Origin: an uncultured Gemmatimonadales bacterium
GTDB lineage: Bacteria; Gemmatimonadota; Gemmatimonadetes; Gemmatimonadales; GWC2-71-9
DNA length: 64,000 bases
Assembly (NCBI GenBank): GCA_963742755.1
Contig: CAVUMU010000002.1
Span: forward strand, 108,987-172,986
Direction of reading: 5' to 3'
Positions 9,569 to 60,435 of the stretch are shown in pieces; within the stretch, counting starts at the first letter, position 1, and every line of letters starts with the position of its first letter. The notes beneath the pieces are model-generated. The model did no database searches. It saw only the letters and a program-made list of their open reading frames with translations, and was not told where the DNA came from. Made by a program: the position numbers and the translations under genes.

Positions 9569-10665
9569 TGGAGCGCACGCTCGGCCGAGAGTTCTACTTC
9601 TCGGAGGAAATCTTTGGCCTCGAGAAGGAACGTATCTTCTGCCGCGAGTGGTTCTGCGCCGGCCGCGAAGAGGATCTGCCTCCGGCGGGCGACTACCTGG
9701 CCCTCGACGTCGCGGGGGAGAGCGTCCTCGTGGTGCGGACCCGGGACGGTACGCTCGCGGCCCACTACAACGTCTGCCGGCACCGCGGATCGCGCCTGGT
9801 GCCGGCGGGTTCCCGGGGCTCTCTGGGCGGCACCATTCGCTGCCCCTATCACTCCTGGACGTACACCCTGGACGGCGCCCTCCGCACTGCTCCTCACCTC
9901 GATGAAGAGGACGGCTTCACCAAGGCGCGCTTGGGACTCAACCCGGTGGGCATCGAGATCTGGGGCGGGTTCTTCTTCCTCAACCTCACTCCGGCCGAAG
10001 CATCCAGCCGCAATTACGGTCTGCTCTCCCAGCTGGGCGAGATACCGGGACGGCTTCGGAGATATCCGCTGGCCGAGCTGCGCTCCGGGCGGCGGATCGA
10101 GTACGAGGTGGAGGCGAACTGGAAGGTCTTACTGGAGAACTACAACGAGTGCTATCACTGCGGGCCGGTTCATCCCGAATTGTGCCGGCTGGTGCCCGCT
10201 TTCAAGCAACGGGGCGGGTCCGACCTGGATTGGGAACGGGGTATCCCGCACCGTGAGGGCGCCTGGACGTTCACCGAGACCGGAACGACTAACCGAAGGC
10301 CGTTCGAGGGGCTCGATGACGATGAGCGGATCCGCCACAAGGGCGAGCTGATCTACCCCAACTTCATGCTCAGTCTCTCGGCGGACCACGTCACTGCCTA
10401 CACGGTCTGGCCCCGAGACGCGGACCACACAACAGTGGTGTGCGATTTTCTCTTTCACCCCTCCGAGATCGCATCGAACGAGTTCGATCCTTCGGACGCG
10501 GTCGACTTCTGGGACCGGGTGAACCGGCAGGATTGGGCCATCTGCGAGAACGTGCAGCGCGGGATGCAGTCGAGGGTGTTCGAGTACGGGTATTACGCGC
10601 CGATGGAGAGCGCGAGTCTCGACATCCGCCGGTACATAAAAGAAAAGCTGGGAGGTGAGAAGTGA
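9568..10665 (+). CDS. Rieske [2Fe-2S] non-heme-iron oxygenase, alpha-subunit type
   Basis: 365 aa. Rieske motif CRHRGSRLV...CPYHSWTY. Mononuclear-iron motif NYNECYHCGPVHPEL. No beta subunit or reductase gene is adjacent. The last codons and the TGA are supplied by the heptamer repeat. Confidence 0.85.
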   Translation: MERTLGREFYFSEEIFGLEKERIFCREWFCAGREEDLPPAGDYLALDVAGESVLVVRTRDGTLAAHYNVCRHRGSRLVPAGSRGSLGGTIRCPYHSWTYTLDGALRTAPHLDEEDGFTKARLGLNPVGIEIWGGFFFLNLTPAEASSRNYGLLSQLGEIPGRLRRYPLAELRSGRRIEYEVEANWKVLLENYNECYHCGPVHPELCRLVPAFKQRGGSDLDWERGIPHREGAWTFTETGTTNRRPFEGLDDDERIRHKGELIYPNFMLSLSADHVTAYTVWPRDADHTTVVCDFLFHPSEIASNEFDPSDAVDFWDRVNRQDWAICENVQRGMQSRVFEYGYYAPMESASLDIRRYIKEKLGGEK

Positions 10666-10811
10666 GAGGTGAGAAGGAACAGGTGCATCGTGTCCCGGGT
10701 GACGAAATGGATCTCCGATCACTCGTGGTAGGTCCTTCGCTTCGCTCAGGATGAGGAGCCTTCTGCCTATTCTCAGCTCGTCCTTCTCCCTTCTCACTTC
10801 TTACTTTTCAC
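10655..10811. repeat. Heptamer-array inverted repeat, GTGAGAA family (arms 10655-10675 and 10784-10811, 108-nt insert)
   Basis: Left arm GTGAGAA GTGAGAG GTGAGAA. Right arm TTCTCCC TTCTCAC TTCTTAC TTTTCAC, the reverse complement of the same unit type. Read directly from the sequence. Confidence 0.9.
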
Positions 10812-10818
10812 GGCGTTC

Positions 10819-11985
10819 GTGAAGAGAGACTTCGAGTACATCGTTCTCGGCCTGGGAGGGTTCGGCAGCGCCGCGGCCTACTGGCTCTCCAAACGGGCCG
10901 GGGCCGAGGTGCTGGGGCTGGAGCAGTTCGAGCTGGGTCACGTACGCGGTGAGTCGCAGGACCACTCCCGCATTATCCGGCTGTCCTATCACACCCCCGC
11001 CTATGTCGAGCTCGCCAAACACGCCTTTCGCGCCTGGGCCCAACTGGAGAAAGATTCGGGCGAGCAGATCGTGCTCAAGACCGGCGGGCTCGACTTTGCA
11101 CCCCGGATCAGCGCCATTCCGCTGACCACCTACTCCGGAAGCATGGATGCGGCGGGCGTCAGCTACGAGGCGCTGGACGCGGCAGAGATCATGCGCCGCT
11201 GGCCTCCCTTTCGACTTAGCGAAGATATCCACGGGCTCTTCCAGCCGGAGAGCGGCATCGCGATGGCGGCCCGGGGGAATGCCGCCCACCAGCGGGTCGC
11301 GCGGGAGCTCGGTGCCACCCTGCGGGACCGGGCGCCGGTAGAAGCCATCCGGCCGCTGGAGGGGTACATCGAAGTCGACGCGGGTGGAGAGCGATACCGC
11401 TGCCGGCGGCTGGTGATCGCGGCCGGCTCGTGGTCCAACCGGGCGCTGGCCCCATTCGGGATTCAACTGCCACTCACCGTCACCCAGGAGCAGGTGACCT
11501 ATTTCGCCACGGCCCGGCCCGCGGACTTCCAGCCCGGCCGCTTCCCCATCTGGATCTGGATGGACGATCCCTGCTTTTACGGCTTCCCCATCTTCGGCGA
11601 GAAGGGGCCCAAGGTGGGGCAGGACGCAGGCGGAAAGGAGGTCACCGCCGATACCCGGACCTTCGAACCAGACCAGGATGCGCTCCGCCGGGTGCAGGAC
11701 TTTCTCGGGAAGTACATCCCCAGCGCACTCGGCCCCATCATTTACACCAAGTCCTGCCTCTACACGCTCACGCCGGACCGCGACTTCGTGCTCGATGCTG
11801 TTCCGGGACATCCGAATGTGGTTGTGGCCATCGGCGGCGGTCACGGATTCAAGTTCGCCTCATTGATCGGGCGGACCTTATCCGAACTGTCCATCGACGG
11901 CGGCACCGAGCGCAACCTCGGACCGTTCCGAATCGACCGTGCCGTGCTGCAGCTGGTCAATCCTCCCCGGAACTACATGGTGTGA
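10819..11985 (+). CDS. Monomeric sarcosine oxidase / N-methyl-L-amino-acid oxidase-like flavoprotein
   Basis: 388 aa. GxGxxG fold YIVLGLGGFGSAAAYWLSKR. The signature ESQDHSRIIRLSYH and C-terminal GGGHGFKF are typical of the MSOX/MTOX (SolA-like) family. Confidence 0.8.
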   Translation: MKRDFEYIVLGLGGFGSAAAYWLSKRAGAEVLGLEQFELGHVRGESQDHSRIIRLSYHTPAYVELAKHAFRAWAQLEKDSGEQIVLKTGGLDFAPRISAIPLTTYSGSMDAAGVSYEALDAAEIMRRWPPFRLSEDIHGLFQPESGIAMAARGNAAHQRVARELGATLRDRAPVEAIRPLEGYIEVDAGGERYRCRRLVIAAGSWSNRALAPFGIQLPLTVTQEQVTYFATARPADFQPGRFPIWIWMDDPCFYGFPIFGEKGPKVGQDAGGKEVTADTRTFEPDQDALRRVQDFLGKYIPSALGPIIYTKSCLYTLTPDRDFVLDAVPGHPNVVVAIGGGHGFKFASLIGRTLSELSIDGGTERNLGPFRIDRAVLQLVNPPRNYMV

Positions 11986-13415
11986 CGGTTTCCGCCACTC
12001 CCGCGGTCCCATTCCAGGAAGCGCCGGCACAGCTCCAGCGCGCGATGGGGTTTCGCGATCTGCTGCTGTTCTACCTGGTTACCGGTTTCACCGTGCGCTG
12101 GATCGGCACCGCGGCCGCGGCGGGGCCGAGCGCAATTGTCATCTGGCTGACGGCATGCCTGGCATTCTATGTCCCGCTGATGTTTACGGTTCTGGAGCTG
12201 TCGTCCCGCTATCCCAATGAGGGTGGCTGCTACGTATGGAGTAAACGCGCCTTTGGGGACTTCGCCGGGTTCATTACGGGTTGGACGTACTGGACCTGTA
12301 ACCTGCCGTACTTTCCCGGCCTGTTCTACTTCACCGCGGCGGCAGCGCTGTTCATCGGCGGGCCCAGGTGGCAGGCTCTGGCGGAGCGACCGCTGTACTT
12401 CATCGCCTTCTCTCTGCTGGCGCTGACCCTCGCGGCCGGGCTCAATGTGCGCGGGCTTGCCGTGGGGAAATGGCTTCACAATCTGGGAGCCCTCGGGCTT
12501 TGGGTGCCCGGAATTGTGCTTTTGGGGCTTGGCCTCGCCGCCTGGCTCCGATTCGGGTCGGCCACGGCCTTCACCTCAGGGACCATGGTCCCAAGCACCC
12601 ACCTCAAGGACATCGTATTCTGGTCTACCATCGCCTTCTCCCTCAGCGGCCTCGAGAGCGCATCCATGATGGGAGACGAGATCCAGAACCCGCGACGGAA
12701 CATTCCGCGAGCCCTGCTGCTGGCGGGATCCCTGATCACCGCGCTCTATGTTCTCTGTACCATCGCCATGCTCGTTGCCTTGCCGGCCACCGACATCCTC
12801 CACCTGCAGGGCTTCATGAAGGCCATTGCAACGGTCAGCGATCGCCTGGGGGTGGGGCAGCTGGTCCCGCTGATCGCGCTGCTGATCGTGATCGGAGGGC
12901 TGGGGCAGGCCGGAGCATGGTTCGCGGCCGGGGGCCGGCTTCCGTTTGTGGCCGGTCTCGACCGGTTCCTTCCGGCCGCATTCGGGAAGATTCATCCTCG
13001 CTACGGCTCGCCCCATGTCAGCCTCATCACCCAGGCTGTTATCGCGGCGCTGTTCATTCTTCTGGGTCAGGCCGGCACGACCGTGAAAGGCGCCTATGAC
13101 GTGCTGGTCAGCATGGCCATCATCTCCTACTTCATTCCCTACCTCTTCATGTTTGCCTCGATGATCCGGCTCCAGCGAGAGCCGGCCGGCCCGGGCGTCA
13201 TTCGGGTGCCCGGCGGCGGACCGGTGGCCATAGCGCTTGCCGCCCTGGGTTTCGTGGTCACCACCTTCTCGATCGGGCTGGCGCTCATCCCGGCGGAGGA
13301 CGAGCCGAACAAGGCGCTGGCCGTCACCAAGGTCGCCGGCCTCACGATCCTGCTGGTGGCCGGTGGTGCATTGGTCTACTTCCTCGGCACCCGGAGGGCG
13401 CATGCCCGCGGTTGA
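11982..13415 (+). CDS. APC-family amino acid/polyamine permease
   Basis: In-frame GTG 11982 overlaps the upstream stop (GTGA). The ORF-track start at 11430 would overlap the oxidase by 550 nt. Product is 477 aa and polytopic (multiple hydrophobic helices, e.g. YVWSKRAFGDFAGFITGWTYW). Confidence 0.8.
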   Translation: MTVSATPAVPFQEAPAQLQRAMGFRDLLLFYLVTGFTVRWIGTAAAAGPSAIVIWLTACLAFYVPLMFTVLELSSRYPNEGGCYVWSKRAFGDFAGFITGWTYWTCNLPYFPGLFYFTAAAALFIGGPRWQALAERPLYFIAFSLLALTLAAGLNVRGLAVGKWLHNLGALGLWVPGIVLLGLGLAAWLRFGSATAFTSGTMVPSTHLKDIVFWSTIAFSLSGLESASMMGDEIQNPRRNIPRALLLAGSLITALYVLCTIAMLVALPATDILHLQGFMKAIATVSDRLGVGQLVPLIALLIVIGGLGQAGAWFAAGGRLPFVAGLDRFLPAAFGKIHPRYGSPHVSLITQAVIAALFILLGQAGTTVKGAYDVLVSMAIISYFIPYLFMFASMIRLQREPAGPGVIRVPGGGPVAIALAALGFVVTTFSIGLALIPAEDEPNKALAVTKVAGLTILLVAGGALVYFLGTRRAHARG

Positions 13416-15230: not shown

Positions 15231-16057
15231 GCCCCAGGATCGTGGCCCCTCCGCGTGTGGCGTTGCTCGGCGTCTGCTACGACGGCAGCTCCTCATATCT
15301 GCGGGGCACTGCCGGGGCTCCGCCCATGATCCGTGAGGCGCTCTGGTCCGAGGCGGGGAATCCATGGGCCGAGCTCGGCATCGACCTCAGTACCGCCGCG
15401 CTGGATGACGAGGGCGACCTGGCGCCGGCCCCGGACGAGGACCCGGCGCAGGTTCGCCTCTTGATCGAGCAGGCGGTCAGAAGAATCGCCGAATCCGGAC
15501 GACGACCACTGGTGCTGGGCGGGGATCACTCGATAACCTATCCGGTCCTGCGTGGCTTTCGGCCCTTCCATCCACGGCTGAGCATCCTCCACTTCGATGC
15601 TCACGGAGATCTCTGGGATGAGTTTGAGGGCGACCGGTACTCCCACGCCTGCCCGTTTGCCCGGATCATGGAGGAAGGCTTGACCGACCGACTGGTCCAG
15701 GTGGGTATCCGCACCATGAATGGGCATCAGCGGGAGCAGGCCAAACGCTTCGGGGTGGAAGTGATCGAGATGAAGGATTGGCGCGACGGGATCAAACTGG
15801 AGTTCGACACGCCGGTCTATGTGTCGTTTGATCTCGATGTCATCGAGCCCGGGCTGGCGCCGGGCATCTCCCATCGCGAAGCGGGTGGCTTCTCGGTGCG
15901 CCAGGCGCTAGCGGTGGTACAGTCGCTCACGGCACCGGTGGTCGGTGCCGACTTCGTCGAGTTCAATCCGGCCGCCGATCAAACCGGTGTAACCGCCGCC
16001 GTTAGCGGCAAGCTGGTCAAGGAGCTGGCCGCCCGCATGCTCATGGAGACGCTATGA
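15227..16057 (+). CDS. Agmatinase/arginase-family ureohydrolase (guanidino-compound hydrolase)
   Basis: 276 aa. Mn-binding motifs GGDHSITYP, HFDAHGDL and SFDLDVIEPGLAPG. GTGA overlap with actP. Confidence 0.85.
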   Translation: MSPRIVAPPRVALLGVCYDGSSSYLRGTAGAPPMIREALWSEAGNPWAELGIDLSTAALDDEGDLAPAPDEDPAQVRLLIEQAVRRIAESGRRPLVLGGDHSITYPVLRGFRPFHPRLSILHFDAHGDLWDEFEGDRYSHACPFARIMEEGLTDRLVQVGIRTMNGHQREQAKRFGVEVIEMKDWRDGIKLEFDTPVYVSFDLDVIEPGLAPGISHREAGGFSVRQALAVVQSLTAPVVGADFVEFNPAADQTGVTAAVSGKLVKELAARMLMETL

Positions 16058-17483
16058 CCTGCCTTGTCCGCCGGCTGGCTCGACTGGCCGCACTCCTGTG
16101 CGCTCTCGCGATGCCCGCCGCAGCGCAGGCGCCGGCGCTCGATTACGACCGCCTTCGCGACGAGACCGCCCAGCGGCTGTCCGAGTATATCCGGATCAAC
16201 AGCAGCAATCCGCCGGGCAACGAGCTGGCCACCGCCCGCTGGCTCAAGGAGGTGCTGGCCAGGGAGGGGATCGAGGGACAGATCCTCGACACCGCCGAGC
16301 TGGGAGCGGGACGGGCCAACTTCTACGCTCGGCTGAGGGGGAACGGCTCCGGGAAAGCGATCGCCCTGGTGCACCATATGGATGTGGTGCCGGTATCCCG
16401 GGAGTTCTGGACCGAGGATCCATTCGCGGGGCTGATCAAGGACGGCTATGTCTGGGGCCGCGGCGCCCTGGATATGAAGGGCCACGGCATCGTCCAACTG
16501 ATGACTCTGATCGCCATCAAGCGCGCGGGCATCCAGCTCAACCGCGACCTGGTGTACATCGGCAATGCTGATGAGGAGTCGGGTGGACTGGGAGCCAAGA
16601 CCTTCATCGTACGGCACCCTGATCTCATCAAGGACGTCGAGTATCTGCTGACCGAGAGCGGTGGAAGTCGGGTTGAGAAGGGAAAGTCCGATGGTTCGGC
16701 CTGAACGTGGGGGAGAAGCGGGCGTATTGGCAGAAGCTGGTGGTGAAGGGCAAGGCGTCCCATGGCTCCAGGCCAACTCCCTACAACCCGGTGCCTCGCC
16801 TCGCGCGAATACTGACGCGCGTTGCCGCATGGGAGACGCCGTTACGACTCACGCCCGCAGTGGATCGCTACCTCAGGGCGGCGGCGCTCGCCGAAACCGG
16901 TGAGCACCGCCGCTGGCTGGCCGACCCGGCACGGGCCCTCGAGTCTGCCCGGGGGCGAGCCTGGCTTCTCAGCGAGCCAGAGCGCAACGCGCTGTTGCGG
17001 AACACGATTTCTCCGACTGTCCTCGTCGGGTCCAACAAGACCAACACCATACCGCCCGAGGCCTCCGCGGAGCTCGATATCCGCCTGCTTCCCGACCAGG
17101 ACACGGTGGCTTTCCGGCGAGAGCTCCTTCGGGTGATCGGTGACACCGGCTTCACGCTAACATCGATCGGAGACATGGCACCTCCCTTCTCCGCGCCGCT
17201 GGATACCGAAATGTCCCGCGCCATCGAGCGTACCGCTGCGCGCCTCCTCCCGGGGGTTCCATTTGCGACCACGACCAGTACCGGTGCGACTGATCGGCCC
17301 TATTACGCGGGCGCGGGGATCATCTGTTATGGGATCGATCCGGCTCTCGTGGATATTGAAGAGGTCCGGCGAGGCGTCCACGGCAATGATGAGAGGGTCT
17401 CGATCGAGAACCTCGGTTTCGGGCTCAAGCTGTATGCGGGAGTGATTCAGGAGATGCAGGCGGTAAAAAAGCGTGAACGGTGA
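16054..17483 (+). pseudogene. M20-family metallopeptidase interrupted by one frameshift (ORFs 16054..16704 and 16707..17483)
   Basis: The N-terminal half carries VHHMDVVPV, GRGALDMKG and NADEESGG. The frame breaks in GAGAAGGGAAAG (about 16675-16690). The other frame continues as KVRWFGLNVGEKRAYWQKLVVKGKASHGSRP, the expected continuation of an M20 dimerisation-domain boundary. Confidence 0.75.
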
Positions 17484-17536
17484 AAAGTTAACGGTAAACG
17501 GGGGCGGTGGAGGCCGGTTCACTGTTCACTGTTCAC
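17473..17536. repeat. Heptamer-array inverted repeat, GTGAACR family (arms 17473-17500 and 17516-17536)
   Basis: Left arm GTGAACG GTGAAAA GTTAACG GTAAACG, loop GGGGCGGTGGAGGCC, right arm GGTTCAC TGTTCAC TGTTCAC. The stop codons of both convergent genes lie inside the arms. Confidence 0.9.
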
Positions 17537-18666
17537 ACCTTTGCACTTCCATGTCCTAATGCCTTCAGCACCTCTCGATCGAACTGAACCGACAGACTCT
17601 CCCGCTTGGAGTACGGCCCCGGCTGGTACGCCCGGGACTGCACCCCGAGCTGGCTCTGCTCGCAGATGTGCCAGTCCTGCCGGTTGGTCATGTCCCAGAA
17701 CGCGATCCCGTCTTCCGGGTCGTGAGCGGGATTGTTCAGACTGTCGGGATGAAAGAGCCAGGAACAGAGGATCCTGGTGCGATCCGGCGCCTCGGGCCAC
17801 AGGGTGTGGAACATCACATAGTCGGGGTGCAGGCTGAGCAGCATGTTGGGAAAGACGGCGTAATAGTAGACCCGGTTCAGGTCTTCCTCAGGCAGGTCGC
17901 CCACCATGACCCCGCATGACCGGCCACTCATGGTCAGGCTCTGGTGGCCCTCGTTGATCACCATGAAGCCCCCGGTGACCGGGCCGTTCACCAGGTCGTT
18001 CTCCCCGCTCGTGGGCGGAGTGAGCTTTGCGAGGGGCGGGTGTACCGGACCACAGTGATAGCACTCGGAGTAGTTCTGGAAGAGCAGCTTCCAGTTGGCC
18101 TTTACCTCGTATTCCATGGTGCGGGCCACCGTCAGATTCGACATGTTGAACCGGTCGAACCGGCCGATGAGCGATTGGCAGGCCTGAGCGAAGGGCTCGG
18201 CATCCTCCGCCAGATTGATGAAGAGAAATCCTTCCCAGCTCTGAATGCCGACGGAATGCAGCGGATAGTCCGCCTTGGCAAAGCCCTCGATCTCGGACGC
18301 CGAAGGCGCCCCGATCAGTCGGCCATCCAGGGCGTAGGTCCAGGCATGATAGGGGCACTGAATGGTCTCGGAAAACCGGCCGGTGTGCTGCTCACAGAGC
18401 CGGGTCCCGCGATGCCGACAGACGTTGTAGTAAGCTCGCAGGGTGCCGCCCTGATCCCGCAGCACGATGATGCTCTCGGTCCCGACCTGCTGGACCAGGT
18501 AGTCCCCGGGCCCCGCGATGCGGTCCTCTCGCCCCACGCACAGCCATCGACGGGTGAAGATTCGCTCGGTCTCCTCGGCGAAGATCTCCGGGGCAACGTA
18601 GTAGCGGCGGGGCAGGGTCTTGGCCCCGTCAATGGCAATTTGGGTGGTCTTGACGAACGATGTCAC
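17533..18666 (-). CDS. Rieske [2Fe-2S] non-heme-iron oxygenase, alpha-subunit type (paralogue of 9568..10665)
   Basis: 377 aa. CRHRGTRLC...CPYHAWTY and NYSECYHCGPVHPPL. Colinear similarity to the first Rieske protein (e.g. EVKANWKLLFQNYSECYHCGPVHP versus EVEANWKVLLENYNECYHCGPVHP). Confidence 0.85.
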   Translation of the reverse strand: MTSFVKTTQIAIDGAKTLPRRYYVAPEIFAEETERIFTRRWLCVGREDRIAGPGDYLVQQVGTESIIVLRDQGGTLRAYYNVCRHRGTRLCEQHTGRFSETIQCPYHAWTYALDGRLIGAPSASEIEGFAKADYPLHSVGIQSWEGFLFINLAEDAEPFAQACQSLIGRFDRFNMSNLTVARTMEYEVKANWKLLFQNYSECYHCGPVHPPLAKLTPPTSGENDLVNGPVTGGFMVINEGHQSLTMSGRSCGVMVGDLPEEDLNRVYYYAVFPNMLLSLHPDYVMFHTLWPEAPDRTRILCSWLFHPDSLNNPAHDPEDGIAFWDMTNRQDWHICEQSQLGVQSRAYQPGPYSKRESLSVQFDREVLKALGHGSAKV

Positions 18667-19252: not shown

Positions 19253-19260
19253 GGGAGCGT

Positions 19261-19329
19261 CGGGAGTCAGGAGACAGGAGTCAGGAGCACTCTCGAACTC
19301 CCGACTCCGCCTCCCGACTCGACTACTCG
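19261..19329. repeat. Heptamer-array inverted repeat, GGAGTCA family (arms 19261-19287 and 19298-19329)
   Basis: CGGGAGTCAGGAGACAGGAGTCAGGAG, loop CACTCTCGAA, then CTCCCGACTCCGCCTCCCGACTCGACTACTCG. Lies between convergent genes. Confidence 0.85.
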
Positions 19330-28308: not shown

Positions 28309-28418
28309 GAGTCTAGGGTCGAGGGTCTGGAGTCTACGCTCAAACCTGCGGATTGCATACATTGCGACTCTTGAATCCTGGCTCTACACCTCGACTCTAG
28401 ACGCTAGACTCTGGACCA
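28309..28418. repeat. Heptamer-array inverted repeat, GAGTCTA/GGGTCTR family (arms 28309-28336 and 28384-28418, 47-nt spacer)
   Basis: Left arm GAGTCTA GGGTCGA GGGTCTG GAGTCTA. Right arm CTACACC TCGACTC TAGACGC TAGACTC TGGACCA. Lies in the divergent LOG/AKR gap. Confidence 0.9.
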
Positions 28419-30506: not shown

Positions 30507-30603
30507 GTGAGAAGTAAGAAGTAAGAAGTGAGAAGTGAGAAGTGAGAAGGGTGGCTGGGGGGCCCTCTCACTGCTCACCTCTCACTTCTCACTTCTCACT
30601 TCC
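30507..30603. terminator. Heptamer-array hairpin (GTGAGAA family) filling the whole convergent gap; probable bidirectional terminator
   Basis: Six units GTGAGAA/GTAAGAA (30507-30548), loop GGGTGGCTGGGGGGCCC, and five units TTCTCAC-type (30566-30599). By hand pairing, about 33 Watson-Crick pairs over about 38 positions. Confidence 0.7.
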
Positions 30604-34604: not shown

Positions 34605-34608
34605 CAAA

Positions 34609-45108: not shown

Positions 45109-45125
45109 GGAGAAGGTATAACTGG

Positions 45126-45213
45126 GTAAGAGGTGAGAAGTAAGAAGTAAGAGAGAAAACGGAGAAGGCGGTTGCCAATTGTCCTTCTCACCTCTCACTT
45201 TCATTTCTTATCC
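45126..45213. repeat. Heptamer-array inverted repeat, GTGAGAA/GTAAGAA family (arms about 45126-45168 and 45183-45213)
   Basis: Left arm GTAAGAG GTGAGAA GTAAGAA GTAAGAG ...GGAGAAGG, loop CGGTTGCCAATTGT, then CCTTCTCAC CTCTCAC TTTCATTTCTTATCC. The glcF stop (TAA 45210..45208) lies in the right arm. Confidence 0.85.
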
Positions 45214-46485: not shown

Positions 46486-47695
46486 CGTTCACCCCTTCCA
46501 GCGCCACACTCAGGCATTGCCCGGGGTCGAAGGTGTCACGCAACCGGCCGACGATCTGGCCAACGCCTTCCCGGTAGGCCCCAAAGTGCCCGATCGCCCG
46601 CCGGACCGCCCAGGGCGCCCTCTCGAGCGTCATGGGGATTTCACGCGCCGCCGCGGCGCGGCGCAGCGCCCGGAGCTGCTCGAGCGGCGCATTGCCTGTC
46701 CAACGGATCATCCCCAGTCCCGCGCCGGCCGAGACCAGGCCCTCGTCGAGGTCATGGGCCAGGAGATCGATCGCTTCGTCGATCCCATCGCCGAGGACGC
46801 CGAGCCGTAGGGTAATGGGGCCGCCAAGACTTCCACGCGCGGCCACGCTCCAGAACGCCGCGGTGCGATCGGCCGGCAACGGCTGCCAGAGCTGCTCGCC
46901 CACCGAGCCCAGCCGACGCACATCGGCCTGGACCGCGGCGTCGGTGCCGACGAATCGGGCGGCAAGCACCCAGTCCGCCTCGGCGGCGAGGGCGGGTGAG
47001 ATCAGCTCCAGGGCGCTGGGCAACAGGTGCGCCGACATCAGCTCGCGCGCGGCGGCCGTCAGTGCGTCGCGAGCGCCCCGCGCCACCAGGGTCACATCGG
47101 CCCGGGGCAGGGCACGGAGCCGGAGATGAACGTCCGCGATGATCCCGAACCCGCCGAAGCCTCCCACCTGGAGCTTGGTGAGATCGTAGCCCGCGACGTT
47201 CTTCACCACCCGGCCGCCGGCGTTGACCAGCCGCCCGTCTCCGGTGGCGACGGTGCAGCCGAGCACGTGGTCTCGCACCGGGCCGTAGCCGTGACGGAGA
47301 GGTCCAGCCGTCGCAGTGGCAATCACCGAGCCGATGCTCCGATCAGGGCGCCCCGGCGGGTCAATAGCGAGCCACATCCCATAATCGGCCAGCCGGCGCC
47401 GCAGCGCCTCGAGCGATGCGCCGCCCTGGACGGTGGCGACCAGGTCGGCCGGGCTGACCGACACGATCTGCTCCAGGGCGCGGGTGCTGACCACCAGGTC
47501 GGCGGGCGCATCCGGGGCCAGCCAGGTCCCTCGGCCTTCCACCCGGATCTTCCAGCTCTCCTCATGCGCCAGACGGCACACGAGCGACAGGGCGTCGCTG
47601 GTGTCCGGGCTGGCGCGGGCCACGCCGTTGGCGTCGCGGTCGACGCCGGCAGTGCCGAGCAGGGCACGAAGACGGGCGTAGATGGCATCGTTCAT
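46478..47695 (-). CDS. glcE: Glycolate oxidase FAD-binding subunit
   Basis: ATG 47695 overlaps the glcD stop (ATGA). FAD_binding_4-type domain. Positioned between glcD and glcF. Confidence 0.8.
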   Translation of the reverse strand: MNDAIYARLRALLGTAGVDRDANGVARASPDTSDALSLVCRLAHEESWKIRVEGRGTWLAPDAPADLVVSTRALEQIVSVSPADLVATVQGGASLEALRRRLADYGMWLAIDPPGRPDRSIGSVIATATAGPLRHGYGPVRDHVLGCTVATGDGRLVNAGGRVVKNVAGYDLTKLQVGGFGGFGIIADVHLRLRALPRADVTLVARGARDALTAAARELMSAHLLPSALELISPALAAEADWVLAARFVGTDAAVQADVRRLGSVGEQLWQPLPADRTAAFWSVAARGSLGGPITLRLGVLGDGIDEAIDLLAHDLDEGLVSAGAGLGMIRWTGNAPLEQLRALRRAAAAREIPMTLERAPWAVRRAIGHFGAYREGVGQIVGRLRDTFDPGQCLSVALEGVNDA

Positions 47696-49113
47696 TGGCG
47701 GGCGCTCCTCACCGCGTGCCATTCACGGCAGGCGTGCACCGGATAAACCTTACCGGGATTCGCTCGTTCTTCCGGGTCGAACACCCGGCGGACAGCGCGC
47801 ATGGCGCCCAGGGTCTGCCCGTCGAAAATCCAGGGCATGTAGTCGAGCTTATCCGACCCGACTCCGTGCTCGCCGGTGATGCTGCCTCCCGCGGCTACGC
47901 AGGCGGCCATGATCTCGCGGCAGGCCAGCTGGACCCGTGCAGTGACCACCGGATCGCGCCGGTCGAAGCTGATGTTCGGGTGAAGATTGCCGTCTCCGGC
48001 ATGGAAGACGTTGCTGATCGTGAGATCGTGATGCTGCCGGATTGCTTCTATCTGGTCCATGATCGCTGGGAGGGCGGAGCGTGGGACCACGGCGTCCTGC
48101 ACCGCGAGGTCCGGAGCGATCCGGCCCATCGCCCCAAATGCCTTCTTCCGCCCCTGCCAGAGTCGTCCCCTGTCAACAGCGGTGGATGCGCTCCTCACCT
48201 CGCGGGCGCCGCACTCGAGGAGGATGTCCTTGACGGTGTGCGCCTCGGCCCCGACGGCATCGGTCTGGCCGTCGAGCTCGACCAGCAGGACCGCCGCCGC
48301 ATCCGTCGGGTAGCCGGCGGCGTAGATGGAAGCTTCTACTGCCGCGACACAGGCCTTATCCATCATCTCGAGTGCTGCGGGTACGATTCCGGCCGCGATG
48401 ATGGCTGATACGGCCTCACTGGCGGCCCGAACGGTGGTAAAGTCGGCTAGCATCGTCCGCACGCTTTCGGGGATCTGCTCCAGCCGGACCGTAATCTCGG
48501 TGGCAATCCCGAACATCCCTTCGCTTCCCACGAACAACCCCACGAGGTCGGGCCCCCAGGCCTCGCCCTGGTCGGATCCGAGCCGCAGCACCGAGCCGTC
48601 GGGGAGAACCACCTCCAGTGCCACGATGTGATTAGTGGTCACTCCGTATTTGAGGCAGTGCGGTCCACCGGCGTTCTCGGCCACGTTGCCTCCGACCGTG
48701 CACGCCGCCTGGCTCGACGGATCCGGTACGTACTGGAGCCCGAGCGGGGCCACGGCTTCGGACAGCCGGGCATTCACGACCCCAGGTTGGACCACTGCCC
48801 TCCGTTGGATCGGATCCACCCGGAGGATGCGATTGAGGCGGGTGAGGGTGATGAGCACCGCGTCCGACTCGGCAAGCGCTCCCCCCGATAACCCGGTGCC
48901 GGCGCCCCGGGCGACGAACGGCACCTGAATGAGGTGCAGCAGGCGGACGATCTCCCGCACCTCGGCGGGGCTCCCCGGCATGATCACGAGGCCGGGCATC
49001 GATTCGTGAGTGGGGAGGCCGTCCATGGCGTAGGTGGCCAGATCGGCACGCCGGTGGCGCACCCACTGGGGTCCAACGATCCGGACCAGCGCATCGATCA
49101 AGGAGGAGTTCAT
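47692..49113 (-). CDS. glcD: Glycolate oxidase subunit GlcD (FAD-linked oxidase)
   Basis: ATG 49113, preceded by AAGGAGGAG. 473 aa. PCMH FAD-binding domain (VPFVARGAGTGLSGGA) and C-terminal GSITGEHGVG. Confidence 0.9.
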   Translation of the reverse strand: MNSSLIDALVRIVGPQWVRHRRADLATYAMDGLPTHESMPGLVIMPGSPAEVREIVRLLHLIQVPFVARGAGTGLSGGALAESDAVLITLTRLNRILRVDPIQRRAVVQPGVVNARLSEAVAPLGLQYVPDPSSQAACTVGGNVAENAGGPHCLKYGVTTNHIVALEVVLPDGSVLRLGSDQGEAWGPDLVGLFVGSEGMFGIATEITVRLEQIPESVRTMLADFTTVRAASEAVSAIIAAGIVPAALEMMDKACVAAVEASIYAAGYPTDAAAVLLVELDGQTDAVGAEAHTVKDILLECGAREVRSASTAVDRGRLWQGRKKAFGAMGRIAPDLAVQDAVVPRSALPAIMDQIEAIRQHHDLTISNVFHAGDGNLHPNISFDRRDPVVTARVQLACREIMAACVAAGGSITGEHGVGSDKLDYMPWIFDGQTLGAMRAVRRVFDPEERANPGKVYPVHACREWHAVRSARQ

Positions 49114-49778: not shown

Positions 49779-49789
49779 GCCGGAATGTA

Positions 49790-49896
49790 GCGGGGCAGCG
49801 GGGCGGCGGGGCAGAAAGGCGATCGGTATCGGAAATCGAAAGGCCGGCTGGATTCCGCCGGCCCTCTTGTCACTGCCCCGCGGCCCCGCCGCTCGC
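49790..49896. repeat. Octamer-array inverted repeat, GCGGGGCA family (arms 49790-49814 and 49873-49896) enclosing a terminator-like hairpin
   Basis: GCGGGGCA GCGGGGCG GCGGGGCA G ... CTGCCCCG CGGCCCCG CCGCTCGC. An inner hairpin GGCCGGC/GCCGGCC (49842-49863) is followed on the minus strand by TTTCGATTTCC, which makes it the likely terminator of the sigma gene. Confidence 0.85.
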
Positions 49897-54926: not shown

Positions 54927-54990
54927 CGGGAGAGCGGAAAGGCGGGAAAGGCGGGAAAGGCGGGAAAGGCGGGAAGGACGGGAAGGAGGG
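54926..54990 (+). repeat. Purine-rich 9-mer tandem array, about 7 units (GGCGGGAAA core x3 perfect), starting at the stop codon
   Basis: GCGGGAGA GCGGAAA GGCGGGAAA GGCGGGAAA GGCGGGAAA GGCGGGAAG GACGGGAAG GAGGG. Read directly. I could find no convincing inverted partner. Confidence 0.9.
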
Positions 54991-55020
54991 CCGCGAGTCA
55001 TCCCGAGCCCTTCGCCCTGC

Positions 55021-56298: not shown

Positions 56299-56334
56299 CG
56301 CCTACGCTTTTCCCGGCCGGGCGTCTCTCGACTC

Positions 56335-57843
56335 TCACCGCACGCCTTTCGCCATTTCCACAACCACACTGTCGATCACACCCAGAATCGACCGGGAGGA
56401 CTGGGCGTGGTGGTTCGCCTGCACGGAGAAGGTCAGGAATCTTCCCCGATCGAGCTCGACGTAGCCGGAGAGGGTGTTGACCCGGGAGATGCTTCCGGTT
56501 TTCCCTCGTACCCGGCCGGCGAGCGAGGTCCCCACGAATCGGGTTCGGAGCGAGCCGGTGGCGCCTGCCTGCGGGAGCCCGGCCGCAAACGTGGGATAGT
56601 GCCGGTGCCGCCGGATGAAGCGGAGAATCTGGGTGAATGCCAGGGGGCTTACCAGGTTGGTGCTGGAGAGACCGGAGCCGTCGCTCAGCGATATTTGGGT
56701 CGAGTCCACCCGCACCGAATCGATCAGAAAGCGCCGCTCCACCTCCAGGCCTTCGGGCCAGGAGCCGCCCCGGCCGAACTGCTTGCCGAGCTGCTTCAAC
56801 AACATCTCCGCGAACCAGTTCTGACTGGTGTTCAGAATGGGAAAGATCCAGTCGCGCAGCGGGCGGGAGAATACCTCCGCCAGTGGGGGGGTCGCCCGTA
56901 AACCGGCGTAAAGAGTGGAGTCGGTGGTGGAACGGGTGGTGCCTGCAACCGAGATACCTGCGTCTGCCAGTGCCTGACGCAGGGCTCGCGCGGCGTACAG
57001 GTTGGGATCCGGCAGCGCGAACGACTCGATGCGCCGCGGATTGTCCATGGCCACGGTGCCTTCGGCCCAGATTCGGAGGGTCCCAGGATGCCGGAAGAAG
57101 CGGTCCCCGATGTCCGACTCCCCCCCGGGCGGGACCGTGACCGTGCGGTTCTCGAAGGCGATGTCTCCGAGATCCGGACTCATCGAGATCACGGCGGGTG
57201 CACCGGGCCCGGGCCCCGGCTGCCAGGTGAAGTCGACGCTATTGTCGTGGAAGCCGAGCCCCGAGACCGGCGCGGCATACCACCAGTTGAGATCAAACTG
57301 CTCCCAATTCGGGTGGATCAAGGTGGGCTCGAAGTAGCTGCCGTCCCCTACCACGTCTCCGGCAATCAGCTGCACCCCCAGGCTTCGGAGCGAGTCGGCC
57401 AGCTGCCGCAGCCGGCCGAGCGGATCGGTGTCGCACACGCCGACGAGGGTGGAGTCGGTGGCGTAACAGCGGCGATCCATGGTCGGATCGCCCCGGCCGT
57501 AGAGCAGCAAATCCCCCAGGAGGACGCCGCCCACCACCGGCCCGCCGTAGACACTGGTCTTCACCCGCCAGTCGGGTGGGAGAAGCGCGGAGGCAACAGC
57601 GCTGACAACCAGCTTGGTGTTGCTGGCGGGAATGAAGAGACGATCCGCATTCCGGCCGTAGACCAGCCGCCCACTCTGGTCCGCCAGTGCCACGCCCCAG
57701 AGCTGCCGGTTGAACGGTGGACGGTCCAGGCGAGCATCGAGGCGCTTGGCCAGGGATTGGGCGGCTGCGCCGGCCGAGAGGACGGAGAGGACGCAGAGGG
57801 CACAGAAGGCTCGCAGCAACCCCCGTCTCCATCCTGTCACCAC
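56335..57843 (-). CDS. dacB: D-alanyl-D-alanine carboxypeptidase/endopeptidase, PBP4 (S13) family
   Basis: GTG 57843 (or 57840). Signal peptide LCVLSVLSAGAAAQ. SxxK motif FIPASNTKL. The ORF-track extension to 57915 only translates the 9-mer array (EDGEGGEGGEDGK). Confidence 0.85.
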   Translation of the reverse strand: MVTGWRRGLLRAFCALCVLSVLSAGAAAQSLAKRLDARLDRPPFNRQLWGVALADQSGRLVYGRNADRLFIPASNTKLVVSAVASALLPPDWRVKTSVYGGPVVGGVLLGDLLLYGRGDPTMDRRCYATDSTLVGVCDTDPLGRLRQLADSLRSLGVQLIAGDVVGDGSYFEPTLIHPNWEQFDLNWWYAAPVSGLGFHDNSVDFTWQPGPGPGAPAVISMSPDLGDIAFENRTVTVPPGGESDIGDRFFRHPGTLRIWAEGTVAMDNPRRIESFALPDPNLYAARALRQALADAGISVAGTTRSTTDSTLYAGLRATPPLAEVFSRPLRDWIFPILNTSQNWFAEMLLKQLGKQFGRGGSWPEGLEVERRFLIDSVRVDSTQISLSDGSGLSSTNLVSPLAFTQILRFIRRHRHYPTFAAGLPQAGATGSLRTRFVGTSLAGRVRGKTGSISRVNTLSGYVELDRGRFLTFSVQANHHAQSSRSILGVIDSVVVEMAKGVR

Positions 57844-57879
57844 CTTTCCGTCTTCACCGCCCTCCCCGCCTTCTCCGTC
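57844..57879 (-). repeat. Purine-rich 9-mer tandem array x4 (minus-strand sense GACGGAGAA GGCGGGGAG GGCGGTGAA GACGGAAAG)
   Basis: Occupies essentially the whole 37-nt spacer between the ABC permease stop (57881-57883) and the dacB GTG (57843). Confidence 0.9.
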
Positions 57880-57880
57880 C

Positions 57881-58801
57881 TCAATCATACGCCACTCTTG
57901 GATCCACCCGCGCATACAGCAGGTCGGTCAGCAGGTTCACCATCACGAAGACCAGGCTGAGAAAGAGAATGCTCCCCTGTACCGCAGGGAGGTCACGCTT
58001 GTCGATGGCGGTGAGGACATAGCGGCCAACTCCAGGCCAGGAGAAAATGGTCTCAGTCAGAATGGAGCCGGTCAGATAACTGCCGAAGTCGAGCCCCAGT
58101 ACGGTGACAACGGGCAGAAGGGCATTTCGAAATCCGTGCGACAGTACCACCCGGCCTTCGTGCAATCCTTTGGCACGTGCTGTGCGAATAAAGTCGCTCT
58201 GGAGCACCTCCTGCATGGCCGCGCGCGTCATCCGCGACAAGAAGGCAACCGATCTCATACCCAGGGTGATGGCGGGAAGGATCAGGTAGATGAGCCCGGC
58301 CGATCCCGACGGTGGCAGCCAGCGCAAATGCACCGCGAAGATCAGGATCAGGATCAGGCCCACCCAATAGACCGGGAACGAGACCCCCAGGTAGGCGCCG
58401 AAAGTCGCGAACCGGTCGGCCCAGCTGCCCGGCCGCCAGGCTCCAAAGATGCCGACCGCGATGCCGACAACCGCGGCGAAGAGCATCGCGGCGCCGGCCA
58501 GCCGGAGCGTCGCGGGAAATCGCTCGAGCAGGTCCCGCAGGATCGGACGCCGGGTGATGTAACTGGTGCCGAGATCGCCCTGGAGAACGCCGCCGATGTA
58601 GTGCCCGAACTGCTGGTAGAGCGGGTCGTCCAGCCGCAGCTCGGCCCGGAGGCGGGCGAGCGTCTCGGCGTCGGCTCGCTCTCCGACCATCGCTTGCACC
58701 GGGTCTCCCGGGGCGACATAGAGCAGCAGGAAGGTGACCAGCAGCACGCCAAACAGGGTGGGGACGAGCAGCGCGAGCCGGTACAGGATGAACCGGCTCA
58801 C
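57881..58801 (-). CDS. ABC transporter permease, peptide/nickel (DppB/OppB-like)
   Basis: 306 aa. N-terminus FILYRLALLVPTLFGVLLVTFLLLYVAPGDP and an EAA-type loop region. Confidence 0.9.
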   Translation of the reverse strand: MSRFILYRLALLVPTLFGVLLVTFLLLYVAPGDPVQAMVGERADAETLARLRAELRLDDPLYQQFGHYIGGVLQGDLGTSYITRRPILRDLLERFPATLRLAGAAMLFAAVVGIAVGIFGAWRPGSWADRFATFGAYLGVSFPVYWVGLILILIFAVHLRWLPPSGSAGLIYLILPAITLGMRSVAFLSRMTRAAMQEVLQSDFIRTARAKGLHEGRVVLSHGFRNALLPVVTVLGLDFGSYLTGSILTETIFSWPGVGRYVLTAIDKRDLPAVQGSILFLSLVFVMVNLLTDLLYARVDPRVAYD

Positions 58802-60330
58802 CGGGTACGCGCTGCCTCCATCCAGCGCTGCCCGGTGAAGACCAGCGGAATCCGCCAGCCCTTGACGTCGGGCTGACTGGCCCAGATGTCCACCGGAAAC
58901 CAGAGAAAGATCCAGGGCGCCAGCTCGAAGACCCGGGCGTCGATCTGGCGCGATAGCCGGGTTTTCTCGGCTTCATCCGTCGTGGCACGGGCGCGGAGAA
59001 TCATGGAGTCAATTCCGGCGTCGGAGAGGAACGCGTAATTGCCGCCCGGACCTTTGTTGCGGGAGTGGAAGAGCGGGAAGTTGAAGTTCTCGGGGTCGGG
59101 GTAGTCCGCCCACCAGTCGGTGAGGAAGAGGTCGGCCTCGCCATTGCGCACCGCGGCGCGAGCGCTCGACGCATCCCGCTCCACAATCTCGGCCCGGATG
59201 CCGACCTCGGTCAGGTTCTGCTGAATGGACTGGGCCAGCCGGGCCAGCTCGGCGCGTTGCGTCCGCCAGAGCTTGATCGAGAAGCCGTTGGGGTAGCCTG
59301 CCTCGGCCAGAAGGTGCTTCGCCTTGGCAGGATCATACCCGTACGGCGCTCGGGTGGAGTCGTAACCCGCTATTCCCGGCGGCAGGGAGCCGGCCGCGAG
59401 CACCCCGCGATCGGACATGACGGTTCCGAGTAAGGTCCGGACATCCACCGCATGATTGAGGGCGCGGCGGACGCGCAGGTCCTTGAGAGGCCCCCGGGTG
59501 GTGTTGATCGCAACGTACAGGTCACGGAGCGCGGGCCGGCGCTGGAGCTCGTCGGCATGGGTCTGCTCCCAGCGCCGGGTCTCGCCTACCGGCACCTCGA
59601 CGACACTCAGCTGGCCGGCTTCGTACTCGGCCGCCTGAGTCAGAGGCTCCGGAATGATCCGGATTCTGAGGGTGTCGGATTTCGGCGCCCCGCCCCAGTA
59701 GCTCTCGTTCCTGGCCAGGATGATCGCATCGTCGTGTGACCAGGAGACGAACTTCCACGGTCCGCTTCCGGTGGGACCCTGATCGAAGTTGGGCGGGGTT
59801 GGTGTTGGAACGATGGCTGCTACCGGCATCGCCAGCAGCTTGGGAAAGACGTTGAGCGGTTCCTCCAGGGTCAGGACCAGGGACGAATCGTCGCGCACGA
59901 CGATTCCGGCTACATCCTTCGCCGACCCGGCGGCGTAGGCCCGGGCGCCGTGGATCGGGTACAAGGGCCAGCTCCGGCCGCCGGTGCTGCCCGGCGCCAG
60001 GGCCCGCAGCAAGGACGCGCGCACGTCCGCCGCCTTGATCGGGCGGCCGTCGTGAAATGTGGCGTTCTGGCGGAGACGAAAAGTGTAGACCCGGCCGGCG
60101 GCATCGGTCTCCCAGCTTCGGGCCAGCCCCGGCTTCAGCTGGGCGTCGGCATCAAACTGCGTCAGATTGTCGAACAGCTGGGAAACGACCTCGCCGGTGG
60201 GCACGTCGGTGGACAAAGCCGGGTCCAGTGATCGAGGGTCGTAGGTGAAATAGTAGTTGAGGGTTTCGTCGCTGCCCTGATCGCCGCAGGCAGAGATGAT
60301 TAAAGCAGTCGCGATAAGAAATTGGCGCAT
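58798..60330 (-). CDS. ABC transporter substrate-binding protein, family 5 (peptide/nickel), lipoprotein
   Basis: ATG 60330, 510 aa. Lipobox LIISAC. The mature part begins with the typical SBP_bac_5 pattern (YFTYDPRSLDPA...). Confidence 0.85.
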   Translation of the reverse strand: MRQFLIATALIISACGDQGSDETLNYYFTYDPRSLDPALSTDVPTGEVVSQLFDNLTQFDADAQLKPGLARSWETDAAGRVYTFRLRQNATFHDGRPIKAADVRASLLRALAPGSTGGRSWPLYPIHGARAYAAGSAKDVAGIVVRDDSSLVLTLEEPLNVFPKLLAMPVAAIVPTPTPPNFDQGPTGSGPWKFVSWSHDDAIILARNESYWGGAPKSDTLRIRIIPEPLTQAAEYEAGQLSVVEVPVGETRRWEQTHADELQRRPALRDLYVAINTTRGPLKDLRVRRALNHAVDVRTLLGTVMSDRGVLAAGSLPPGIAGYDSTRAPYGYDPAKAKHLLAEAGYPNGFSIKLWRTQRAELARLAQSIQQNLTEVGIRAEIVERDASSARAAVRNGEADLFLTDWWADYPDPENFNFPLFHSRNKGPGGNYAFLSDAGIDSMILRARATTDEAEKTRLSRQIDARVFELAPWIFLWFPVDIWASQPDVKGWRIPLVFTGQRWMEAARTR

Positions 60331-60344
60331 TGTTGTCAATCGGA

Positions 60345-60435
60345 CAGCGGGGCAGGGGGCAGGGGGCAGGGGGCAGTAAAAGTTCACTGAGCCGGCTGAA
60401 CCGGGCAACCGCCCCGCGGCCCCGCGGCCCCGCTG
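60345..60435. repeat. GC-rich 7/8-mer-array inverted repeat, GGGGGCA / GCGGCCCC family (arms 60345-60376 and 60409-60435)
   Basis: CAGCGGGGCA GGGGGCA GGGGGCA GGGGGCA G ... CCGCCCC GCGGCCCC GCGGCCCC GCTG. The outer 9 bp CAGCGGGGC/GCCCCGCTG are perfectly complementary. Confidence 0.85.

Follow-up and report, generated by a model that had tools for sequence, protein, structure and literature searches.

The question raised by the locus studied here is what kind of element fills the gaps between its genes. The locus is a 64,000-nt stretch of DNA from an uncultured Gemmatimonadales bacterium (GenBank assembly GCA_963742755.1, contig CAVUMU010000002.1, positions 108,987 to 172,986 of the forward strand; the window), in which intergenic regions hold inverted pairs of arrays, each array being a run of short head-to-tail units. 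These pairs belong to a class of polar, boundary-hugging, paired microsatellite-like arrays that occurs across the lineage and turns over at fixed sites. An original prediction, made from the letters of the window, had described nine hairpin loci built of 7-8-nt units and had proposed that they serve as combined three-frame stop, terminator and insulator modules. Its idea that the family is defined by architecture and not by sequence is borne out.

Inverted pairs of tandem arrays with a unit of 7, 8 or 9 nt number at least 11 in the window, which also contains one lone array and one remnant; at least six unit families are represented. Partners were identified by aligning the reverse complement of each array locally against its flanks; Tandem Repeats Finder (TRF), run separately, detects most arms on its own. 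Counted individually, there are 15 arrays of period 7 or 8 and eight of period 9, and 12 have an inverted same-unit partner within 200 nt, whereas 30 dinucleotide-preserving shuffles gave means of 1.0, 0.5 and 0 for these three quantities. Across the window and the first 80 related loci, a reverse-complement partner was found for 109 arrays, as against 17 with a control query that was reversed but not complemented. Coding sequence makes up 91.6% of the window (codon-model gene call) and all elements are intergenic; approximately 13 of some 29 gaps of at least 30 nt hold an array, and the elements account for about a fifth of the intergenic DNA. The nine loci originally listed do hold the arrays described for them, and their confinement to gaps of all three orientations is upheld; the count was too low, however, since the features at 34607-34709, 57776-57882, 54936-54984 and 41513-41529 had been missed.

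The class is not peculiar to this genome. Related loci and contigs (numbered with the prefix L) were fetched with anchor proteins; the prolyl oligopeptidase encoded beside the element at 30505-30603 has its best relatives in Gemmatimonadales metagenome-assembled genomes (MAGs), at 92-60% amino-acid identity. Paired elements number 45 in 774 kb from 57 Gemmatimonadales genome loci, a further 33 occur in 450 kb of contigs from soil metagenomes obtained with a different anchor protein, and none was counted in 445 kb of loci that the same query brought in from Poribacteria, Calditrichia, Chloroflexota, cyanobacteria and others. The elements are characteristic of Gemmatimonadales chromosomes, where their density among relatives ranges from 0 to 5 per roughly 20 kb. 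The further elements on related contigs thus number 78. Since the identical architecture recurs on dozens of contigs from separately assembled MAG and metagenome projects, an assembly artefact, a possibility raised with the original prediction, is excluded. Gene order around the window is kept in dozens of species; a metagenome scan for strain-level relatives returned none above 91% amino-acid identity.

About 12 unit families turn up repeatedly, at gaps with no relation to each other and in both data sets, among them GTGAGAA, GTGAACG, GGTCTAG, GGAGTCA, GCTGGGA and GGCTATT, as well as GCGGGGCA, GGTAAGCG, ACGGTCAG, ACGGGAAGG and ACGGAGAGG. Two elements share a family in 5.4% of pairs, compared with 1.05% (maximum 1.6%) when units are scrambled with their composition kept, and for pairs on the same contig the figure is 11.3% (permutation p = 0.025).

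In the combined census of 89 elements (the window plus the 78 further elements), the period is 7 in 49, 8 in 21 and 9 in 19; the 7-8-nt range first given therefore holds for the first two groups and omits the third. Spacers span 2-155 nt (median 44), and the arms, which were indeed seen to be unequal in length, have a median of 32 nt and reach 138 nt. In 87 of the 89, the 5' arm is the one richer in G, and usually in purines (55/56 plus 32/33; binomial p about 1e-23). An inverted repeat reads identically on both strands, so that this polarity is a property of the element and not a strand effect: the G-rich strand almost always leads, 5' to 3', out of the flanking gene and into the gap. The same rule is followed in 16 of 20 cases by lone arrays that lie no more than 40 nt from a gene boundary. 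Only two clear exceptions were observed, at 16725-16888 of L047 and 272-342 of L096, where the unit is AGTCRCC and the C-richer arm lies 5'. As candidate causes of the polarity, stop codons, Shine-Dalgarno mimicry, a Chi-like function and the healing of breaks by repeat addition were considered, each of which covers only part of the data; the avoidance of purine-rich start signals, an asymmetry in RNA:DNA hybrid stability and a strand-specific enzyme were also considered.

The arms abut coding sequences, and at most window elements they end within approximately 20 nt of a start or stop codon. What they enclose ranges from as little as 2-16 nt to a terminator, a conserved core or another repeat. 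In the gap at 39425-39609, a core of some 75 nt is conserved among close relatives, and it is probable that some arm pairs bracket a promoter region. Nine elements fold as long hairpins, with energies of -26 to -69 kcal/mol and z-scores of -2.6 to -8.0 relative to shuffles. Variant units are mirrored between the arms beyond unit-shuffled controls (10/48 at p <= 0.05; 26/48 at p <= 0.2), and arms are often composite, a variant unit having been expanded as a block, for example the six CCTGGAC units in the CTAGACC arm at 39528-39604.

Comparison of orthologous gaps, as had been suggested with the original prediction, revealed differences between relatives both in unit number and in family. Elements are gained, lost or replaced at a given gap between species. 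The gap between the peptidase and DoxX genes is occupied by AAGTGAG arrays in the window, GGTGAGA in L001, GGCTATT in L002 and L005, GGGAAGGAC in L003, GCTGGGA in L008, GCGGGGCA in L009, GGGGGACA in L011, GGAGCTA in L013 and GCTGAAA in L031; in L012 and L043 it contains no element, and the two genes nearly touch. Conversely, the LOG/BrkB junction (27694) is a gene overlap, and empty, in the window and is filled elsewhere, by ACGGGAAGG (L001, L002), GGTAAGCG (L047) or GCGGGGCA (L028). At the gap of 39425-39609, GGTCTAG arms and a shared core in the window clade are matched by GTGAACG arms and another core in L013 and by GAAGGTC arms with a 6-nt loop in L015, and L036 is free of arrays. The gap that holds a remnant in the window (41513-41529) carries a full GCGGGGCA pair in L009 and L010.

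Elements are also remodelled in place, through gain or loss of units, expansion of variant blocks and recombination between arms. L009 and L010, with 92.7% DNA identity, differ by one unit in the 5' arm and in the blocks of the 3' arm, in keeping with the growth and shrinkage by units that had been proposed. The centre of the ACGGGAAGG element (loop and inner units) is inverted between L001 (14971-15109) and L002 (6953-7071) while the outer flanks are collinear, which indicates recombination between the arms, as does the mirroring of variant units noted above. In the counterpart of 45126-45213 in L045 and L046, the C-rich leader arm alone is kept, together with GTTATACCTT directly before the ATG; this single arm has been retained across ~72% DNA identity. 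Finally, L041 possesses two elements 900 bp apart (12192-12304 and 13083-13182) around one small gene, with the same arms (CACGGAAGA) and nearly identical loops (GGGTGAACAGCACACCCACA.AGTCCTT), a pair that arose either by local duplication or as a dispersed copy. Two cases, L008 (GCTGGGA from a conserved GTGCTGGG) and L047 (GGTAGGCG from the native junction), suggest that the end of the neighbouring gene can seed units; as both units also occur at other gaps, local seeding was not accepted as a general origin.

Tandem heptamer arrays have been noticed in bacteria since 1990, in cyanobacteria (short tandemly repeated repetitive sequences, STRR) and then in Xanthomonas, Geobacter and Beggiatoa, and elements of like architecture and polarity have already been published for Geobacter and Xanthomonas. 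In G. metallireducens, 24, 21 and 8 site pairs, with units GTTGCTYN, TCTCCGTS[Y] and MTYCTGA, consist of 3-5 tandem copies on opposite strands at variable distance and were considered putative sites for integration host factor (IHF) or HU (Aklujkar 2009, PMC2700814). The arrays described here share with them the pairing of intergenic 7-9-nt tandem arrays on both strands at variable distance, the presence of several unit classes in one genome, and a pyrimidine-rich strand that points outward 5' to 3' (PMC2700814 supplement). The likeness extends to the units themselves: class 2, TCTCCGTSY (TCTCCGTCC), and class 3, CTCCTGA, are exact units of our ACGGAGAGG and GGAGTCA families, and such units lie in the window at 57776-57882 and 19259-19329 and in other Gemmatimonadales loci. 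The class 1 unit, GTTGCTYN, was not found in any fetched locus. Geobacter differs in belonging to another phylum, in having three classes as opposed to the more than ten families found here, and in that no comparative or evolutionary analysis of its elements has been published.

Xanthomonas genomes each contain approximately 185 GGGAATC arrays, of which 70-75 form 'convergent' inverted pairs; the G-rich strand is the coding strand within 50 bp past stop codons, often overlapping them, and the non-coding strand just before starts, and no function was found (Rehm 2015, PMC4692102). The number of units is polymorphic, and the arrays have been used as markers in multiple-locus variable-number tandem repeat analysis (MLVA). 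Intergenic heptamers, inverted pairs and the placement of the G-rich strand are common to both systems. In Xanthomonas, however, there is one unit per genome, with a G-tract that forms quadruplexes in vitro, whereas GTGAGAA, GTGAACG, GGAGTCA, GGTCTAG and ACGGAGAGG have no run of three or more G; moreover, the Xanthomonas arrays are under-represented between divergent genes, and here divergent gaps are filled about as often as others. The cyanobacterial STRR heptamers and long simple-sequence repeats (Mrazek 2007, Mazel 1990, as cited in PMC4679880, PMC4692102) and the TAACTGA repeats of Beggiatoaceae, with one inverted set among 170 in a Beggiatoa-like genome (PMC4679880), are likewise 5-11-nt tandem units, mostly heptamers, that are intergenic, lie near starts, vary in abundance by lineage and have been proposed to arise by slippage. 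They are looser relatives, mostly lone direct arrays, and neither inverted pairing nor a polarity rule is described for them.

Repetitive extragenic palindromic (REP) sequences, bacterial interspersed mosaic elements (BIMEs) and REPINs are likewise abundant intergenic palindromes and inverted pairs, often at 3' ends or inside operons, whose RNA hairpins stabilise or attenuate transcripts and which are inherited vertically within a lineage. REPs are single conserved palindromes of 20-40 nt with a GTAG or CGTC head and a link to the RAYT transposase; the arms found here are tandem arrays of differing units with no common palindrome, and no RAYT is encoded in the 64-kb window. As regards MITEs, the miniature inverted-repeat transposable elements, no target-site duplication was found when filled and empty sites were compared at two gaps (peptidase/DoxX and LOG/BrkB), and loops differ among same-family copies, the L041 pair being the exception. 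CRISPR arrays have 24-48-nt repeats with unique spacers, as opposed to spacer-free, head-to-tail units of 7-9 nt. Integron attC sites, with R''/R' core sites (RYYYAAC ... GTTRRRY) in a cassette context, were considered; the flanks are housekeeping genes in mixed orientation, unlike a cassette array. Eukaryotic foldback transposons also possess inverted arms of tandem sub-repeats, unequal in length, with variable or absent loops; they differ in their kilobase scale, their target-site duplications and their mobilisation by a transposase.

The original statement that the elements match none of the REP/BIME, ERIC, MITE or CRISPR descriptions is confirmed, while it would be wrong to say that nothing alike had been described (PMC2700814, PMC4692102). 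What the published accounts compared here do not describe is that the families are so many, that elements turn over at orthologous sites, that the polarity is general, that arms recombine and that units are shared across phyla. The lineage amounts to a dense and diverse natural experiment, with many families in a gene order conserved over dozens of species, and it offers a set of rules: G-to-C polarity, bracketing, family turnover at a fixed site, arm recombination and shared units across phyla.

This leads to the question as to what such arrays do. In the window, an array is present in all five non-overlapping convergent gaps, as against 8 of 24 other gaps (Fisher p = 0.011), and this full occupancy speaks in favour of some role at 3' ends. 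In related loci, 19% of convergent, 10% of divergent and 6% of co-directional gaps of 30-600 nt are occupied, figures based on rough gene calls. A Shine-Dalgarno-like core precedes none of eight element-adjacent starts, compared with 20 of 45 other starts (p = 0.019), and the leaders of element-adjacent genes are 42% C and 17% G. Shine-Dalgarno usage looks low in this genome as a whole, a GGAG/GAGG/AGGA core lying at -20 to -4 in 20 of 53 called genes (30 nt upstream inspected). A consensus scan of 10000-49999 gave no clear excess of terminator-like sites over chance (19 versus 11.1 +/- 3.1 and 12 versus 9.4 +/- 3.4), and its promoter-like sites did not exceed chance expectation; it flagged none of the arm pairs in that interval, only a nested hairpin at 34633-34650. 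Rfam at gathering thresholds produced zero matches over the whole window, and tRNA and tmRNA genes were likewise absent from it.

The reading that we tentatively prefer, and to which we give a little less than an even chance, is that these are slippage-driven boundary arrays which work as hairpin insulators in the manner of REP/BIME elements. The arrays would originate by replication slippage on units too long for mismatch repair, and the complementarity of the arms would be kept up by recombination or template switching between them. That units of at least 7 nt slip and escape mismatch repair has been offered for long simple-sequence repeats generally (summarised in PMC4679880, PMC4692102). 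A transcript that enters the gap from either side would contain the purine arm first and the pyrimidine arm next, and could fold into a hairpin of 20-60 bp. REP/BIME hairpins are associated with polymerase pausing, a block to 3' exonucleases and RNase III cleavage. The array hairpin could, similarly, make RNA polymerase pause or stop, stand in the way of 3' exonucleases or be a substrate of RNase III, and would then constitute a U-tract-independent insulator effective from both sides, while a transcript leaving the gap would carry in its leader the G-poor pyrimidine arm only, unable to fold on itself. Such an insulator agrees with the occupation of every convergent gap, with canonical terminators not being in excess and with the leaders devoid of a Shine-Dalgarno core.

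Several points weigh against this reading, all of whose functional steps we infer. Predicted folds of sense and antisense RNA do not differ consistently and bear no signature of selection at the RNA level. In the window element sequences inspected, the stem of an intrinsic terminator is present, but the U-tract is missing, no T-run following the arms. Canonical, sense-oriented hairpins with a T-run do lie within two loops, at 34633-34662 and, on the minus strand, at 49822-49850; transcripts would thus probably end before the second arm, so that no hairpin would form in cis. The three window elements between divergent genes (28309-28418, 39425-39609 and 60345-60435), where no gene needs a terminator, do not fit well. 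Local slippage does not explain why unit families recur at unrelated gaps and even in Geobacter, and this recurrence of specific units points instead to dispersal or to a sequence-specific factor. The near-universal polarity has candidate causes only. Furthermore, the crude codon log-odds caller used for related loci assigned the correct strand to the anchor gene in 12 of 15 test loci, and its imperfect calls in distant loci make the gap-type frequencies outside the window rough.

It is possible, although we think it doubtful, that the arrays are neutral or selfish structural DNA, expanded by slippage and made palindromic by template switching, which survives only where it is harmless, that is, between coding sequence and the regulatory core of a gap. 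The fast turnover, the empty orthologous sites and the uneven density among relatives are all as one would expect in that case, as are the occupation of every gap type and the absence of a strand bias in RNA folding; the failure to find a function for the Xanthomonas arrays (PMC4692102) is also in agreement. Neutrality does not, however, predict that 87 out of 89 elements share one polarity, that the repertoire of units is limited and common to the order, that convergent gaps are all occupied or that L045 and L046 have retained a single leader arm.

A different alternative, which we rate as rather unlikely, is a single cross-phylum system, as opposed to independent microsatellites, in which specific units are placed by sequence-specific machinery, or else a direction-dependent transcription valve. 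In the former, a small set of 7-9-nt units, the same in Gemmatimonadales, in Geobacter and in some phages of these bacteria, would be set at gene boundaries with fixed polarity by a nuclease or recombinase, or by a templated-synthesis activity, in a partnership comparable to that of RAYT and REPIN. In the latter, purine-rich RNA entering the gap would favour RNA:DNA hybrids and the hairpin, which pyrimidine-rich RNA leaving the gap would not.

Another notion is that of non-autonomous mobile DNA (REPIN-, MITE- or foldback-like), in which a trans-acting enzyme with its gene elsewhere in the genome would copy each unit family from gap to gap; this, too, we regard as unlikely. It would account for unit families common to unrelated gaps and many species, for family sharing that is higher within than between genomes, for the replacement of whole elements, arms and loop, at one gap, for the two L041 copies and for the identical units in Geobacter and on viral contigs, and a strand-specific enzyme would account for the fixed polarity. 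The missing target-site duplications in both filled-versus-empty comparisons and the differing loops of same-family copies in the window argue otherwise. The 50 predicted window proteins scanned belong to housekeeping and metabolic families only, with no transposase, integrase or HUH nuclease among them; moreover, ten or more families per genome would demand many cognate enzymes, and the polarity rule is followed by lone arrays too.

Protein-binding sites are an improbable solution, whether for nucleoid-associated proteins (IHF/HU) or for a single-strand binder such as a cold-shock protein, with one 7-nt unit per monomer. Such a role would be suggested by the limited and conserved repertoire of units, by the paired, symmetric arrangement, by the annotation of the Geobacter pairs as putative global-regulator sites (Aklujkar 2009, PMC2700814) and by the binding of heptamer repeats by CspB, cited by MacGregor 2015. 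It is at odds with one architecture being realised in many unrelated unit sequences, with a 7-9 bp period that puts the sites off a single face of the DNA helix, and with copy number and spacing that vary freely; in these organisms the sites are putative.

Purpose-built modules combining a three-frame stop, a terminator and an insulator, as first envisaged, are very improbable. Units of the GTGAGAA, GTGAACG and GGTCTAG families do yield a stop in each of the three frames, no fewer than six genes of the window have their ends in or at an arm, and the five stop codons said to derive from arm units are the true ends of open reading frames (ORFs) 9568-10665, 16707-17483, 17533-18666 (minus strand), 30024-30506 and 45208-46485 (minus strand). 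On L176, a contig of a Mu-like phage, stop-containing arrays even supply the stops of upstream ORFs in nearly every operon gap. As a general design, however, the three-frame stop fails: it is found in only 26 of 112 incoming arms (23%), and 55 of the 112 have no stop at all. Three-frame stops are rare in period-8 arms and never occur in period-9 arms, where the arithmetic breaks down since 9 is 0 mod 3. Nor is a general terminator role supported, in view of the occupied divergent gaps, the terminators already present in two loops, the missing T-runs and the lack of a consistent bias between sense and antisense folds. Stop-codon donation is, rather, a by-product limited to units with TGA, TAA or TAG; to judge from L176, the stop-containing families may have a role in ending translation in every frame, which is not a common denominator of the class. 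Finally, G-quadruplex formation, as proposed for Xanthomonas GGGAATC, is scarcely credible, for although the units GCGGGGCA, GGGGCAG, ACGGGAAGG and GCTGGGA contain G-runs, about half of the families (the five without GGG listed above) retain the same architecture and polarity.

Should the preferred reading hold and the arrays be U-tract-independent insulators or processing sites, this would matter for how genomes of Gemmatimonadota are annotated and their operons predicted, and perhaps also for other high-GC phyla with few canonical terminators. If they are instead dispersed by an enzyme, a new partnership between repeat and enzyme would be implied.

The individual window elements illustrate the range of forms. 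The GTGAGAA pair at 10655-10811 lies between co-directional plus-strand genes, with arms at 10655-10677 and 10783-10811 and a loop of 105 nt; the stop of the upstream gene (10663-10665) falls within the 5' arm, and half a copy of a second palindromic repeat lies in the loop (~10730-10765; described below). The GTGAACG/GTGAACA pair at 17473-17536 separates convergent genes whose stops, 17481-17483 and 17533-17535, are both within arms. Another convergent gap, at 19259-19329, has the GGAGTCA pair, with the Geobacter class 3 unit and no stop codon. The GAGTCTA/GGGTCTR pair at 28309-28418 occupies the divergent gap between a LOG-family gene (minus strand) and an aldo-keto reductase gene (plus strand). 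The best-formed hairpin (-55 kcal/mol, z = -8) is that of the AAGTGAG pair at 30505-30603, which has 6.4 and 5.3 copies around a 16-nt loop in the convergent gap between the DoxX and prolyl oligopeptidase genes.

Further along, the period-9 pair at 34607-34709 (unit AAGACGGAG) stands between co-directional plus-strand genes, has a degenerate 3' arm and encloses in its loop the terminator-like hairpin with T-run already mentioned (34633-34662). At 39425-39609, in the divergent gap between a VWA gene (minus strand) and an MFS gene (plus strand), the GGTCTAG pair has approximately three units in the 5' arm and about 11 in the 3' arm, the latter in two blocks (CCTGGAC x6 and CTAGACY); its arms end 7-9 nt from both start codons. 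The remnant at 41513-41529 is a 3'-type arm of two GCCCCGCT units at the junction of two overlapping convergent genes. The GTAAGAA/GTGAGAA pair at 45126-45213 separates two minus-strand genes, one glcF-like and one for a HAD phosphatase, which probably form one operon; the upstream gene's stop (45208-45210) is within a degenerate outer unit.

The period-8 pair at 49789-49896 (unit GCGGGGCA) is located between minus-strand genes, and its loop contains, on the minus strand, a GC hairpin followed by a U-rich tail (about 49822-49850). The lone array, at 54936-54984 on the plus strand, is purine-rich, has a period of 9 ((GGAAAGGCG) x5.4) and occupies a convergent gap; it begins 9 nt past the stop of the upstream plus-strand gene, has no complementary arm and precedes an incomplete copy of the second palindromic repeat. 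The period-9 pair at 57776-57882 (unit GAGAGGACG) lies between minus-strand genes, with the upstream stop (57881-57883) at the arm edge. Finally, the pair at 60345-60435 combines GGGGCAG x4 (period 7) with GCCCCGCG x3 (period 8) in the divergent gap between a solute-binding protein gene (minus strand) and a BamA-like gene (plus strand).

The genes of the window are ordinary chromosomal ones, encoding TonB-dependent receptors, BamA, a glycolate oxidase-like operon, peptidases and transporters. The glycolate-oxidase-like operon (44446-49113, minus strand), inside which the element at 45126-45213 is located, comprises two genes for FAD-linked oxidases and one for a CCG/Fe-S subunit, followed by the HAD phosphatase gene. 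An M20/M28-type peptidase appears to be split into adjacent ORFs in different frames, 16054-16704 with the N-terminal catalytic part and 16707-17483 with the dimerisation and C-terminal part; this could reflect a frameshift, a pseudogene or a sequencing error.

Arrays also occur on viral contigs, which were scanned with (GTGAGAA)3 as query. The Mu-like phage contig L176 (1-14774; IMG/VR UViG_3300026516_000007; GC 62%), to which L178, L182 and L183 may be added, encodes a transposition protein, a ParB-like protein and a small terminase. Nearly all gaps of its co-directional operon hold a lone purine-rich heptamer array (GAAGTGA, TGAACAG, TGAAAAG), which provides the stop of the upstream ORF and is followed by A-rich AACAACAAC...GGAGG...ATG; the unit families are those of Gemmatimonadales chromosomes. 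Two low-GC contigs from giant-virus bins contain lone arrays, neither of which has an inverted partner: L161 (IMG/VR GVMAG contig, GC 38%) has (AGAGGACGG) x11 at 1068-1169, a 9-mer also found here, and L166 has a 49-copy array at 10265-10583, for which TRF gives the consensus CTAACC (6 nt) under a period of 7.

A second, unrelated repeat is present in 18 of the first 80 loci. It is a near-perfect palindrome of approximately 75 nt, GTCATCCTGAGCGAAGCGAAGGAG...CTCCTTCGCTTCGCTCAGGATGAC, which is sometimes found alone and sometimes inside an array pair's loop. In the window its copies, at 10730-10765 and 54990-55020, are no more than halves or degenerate. Copies are found in L014 (9077-9138, 20956-21017 and 21728-21789) and L041 (9674-9735 and 18088-18149), and also in L042, L064, L034 and others.

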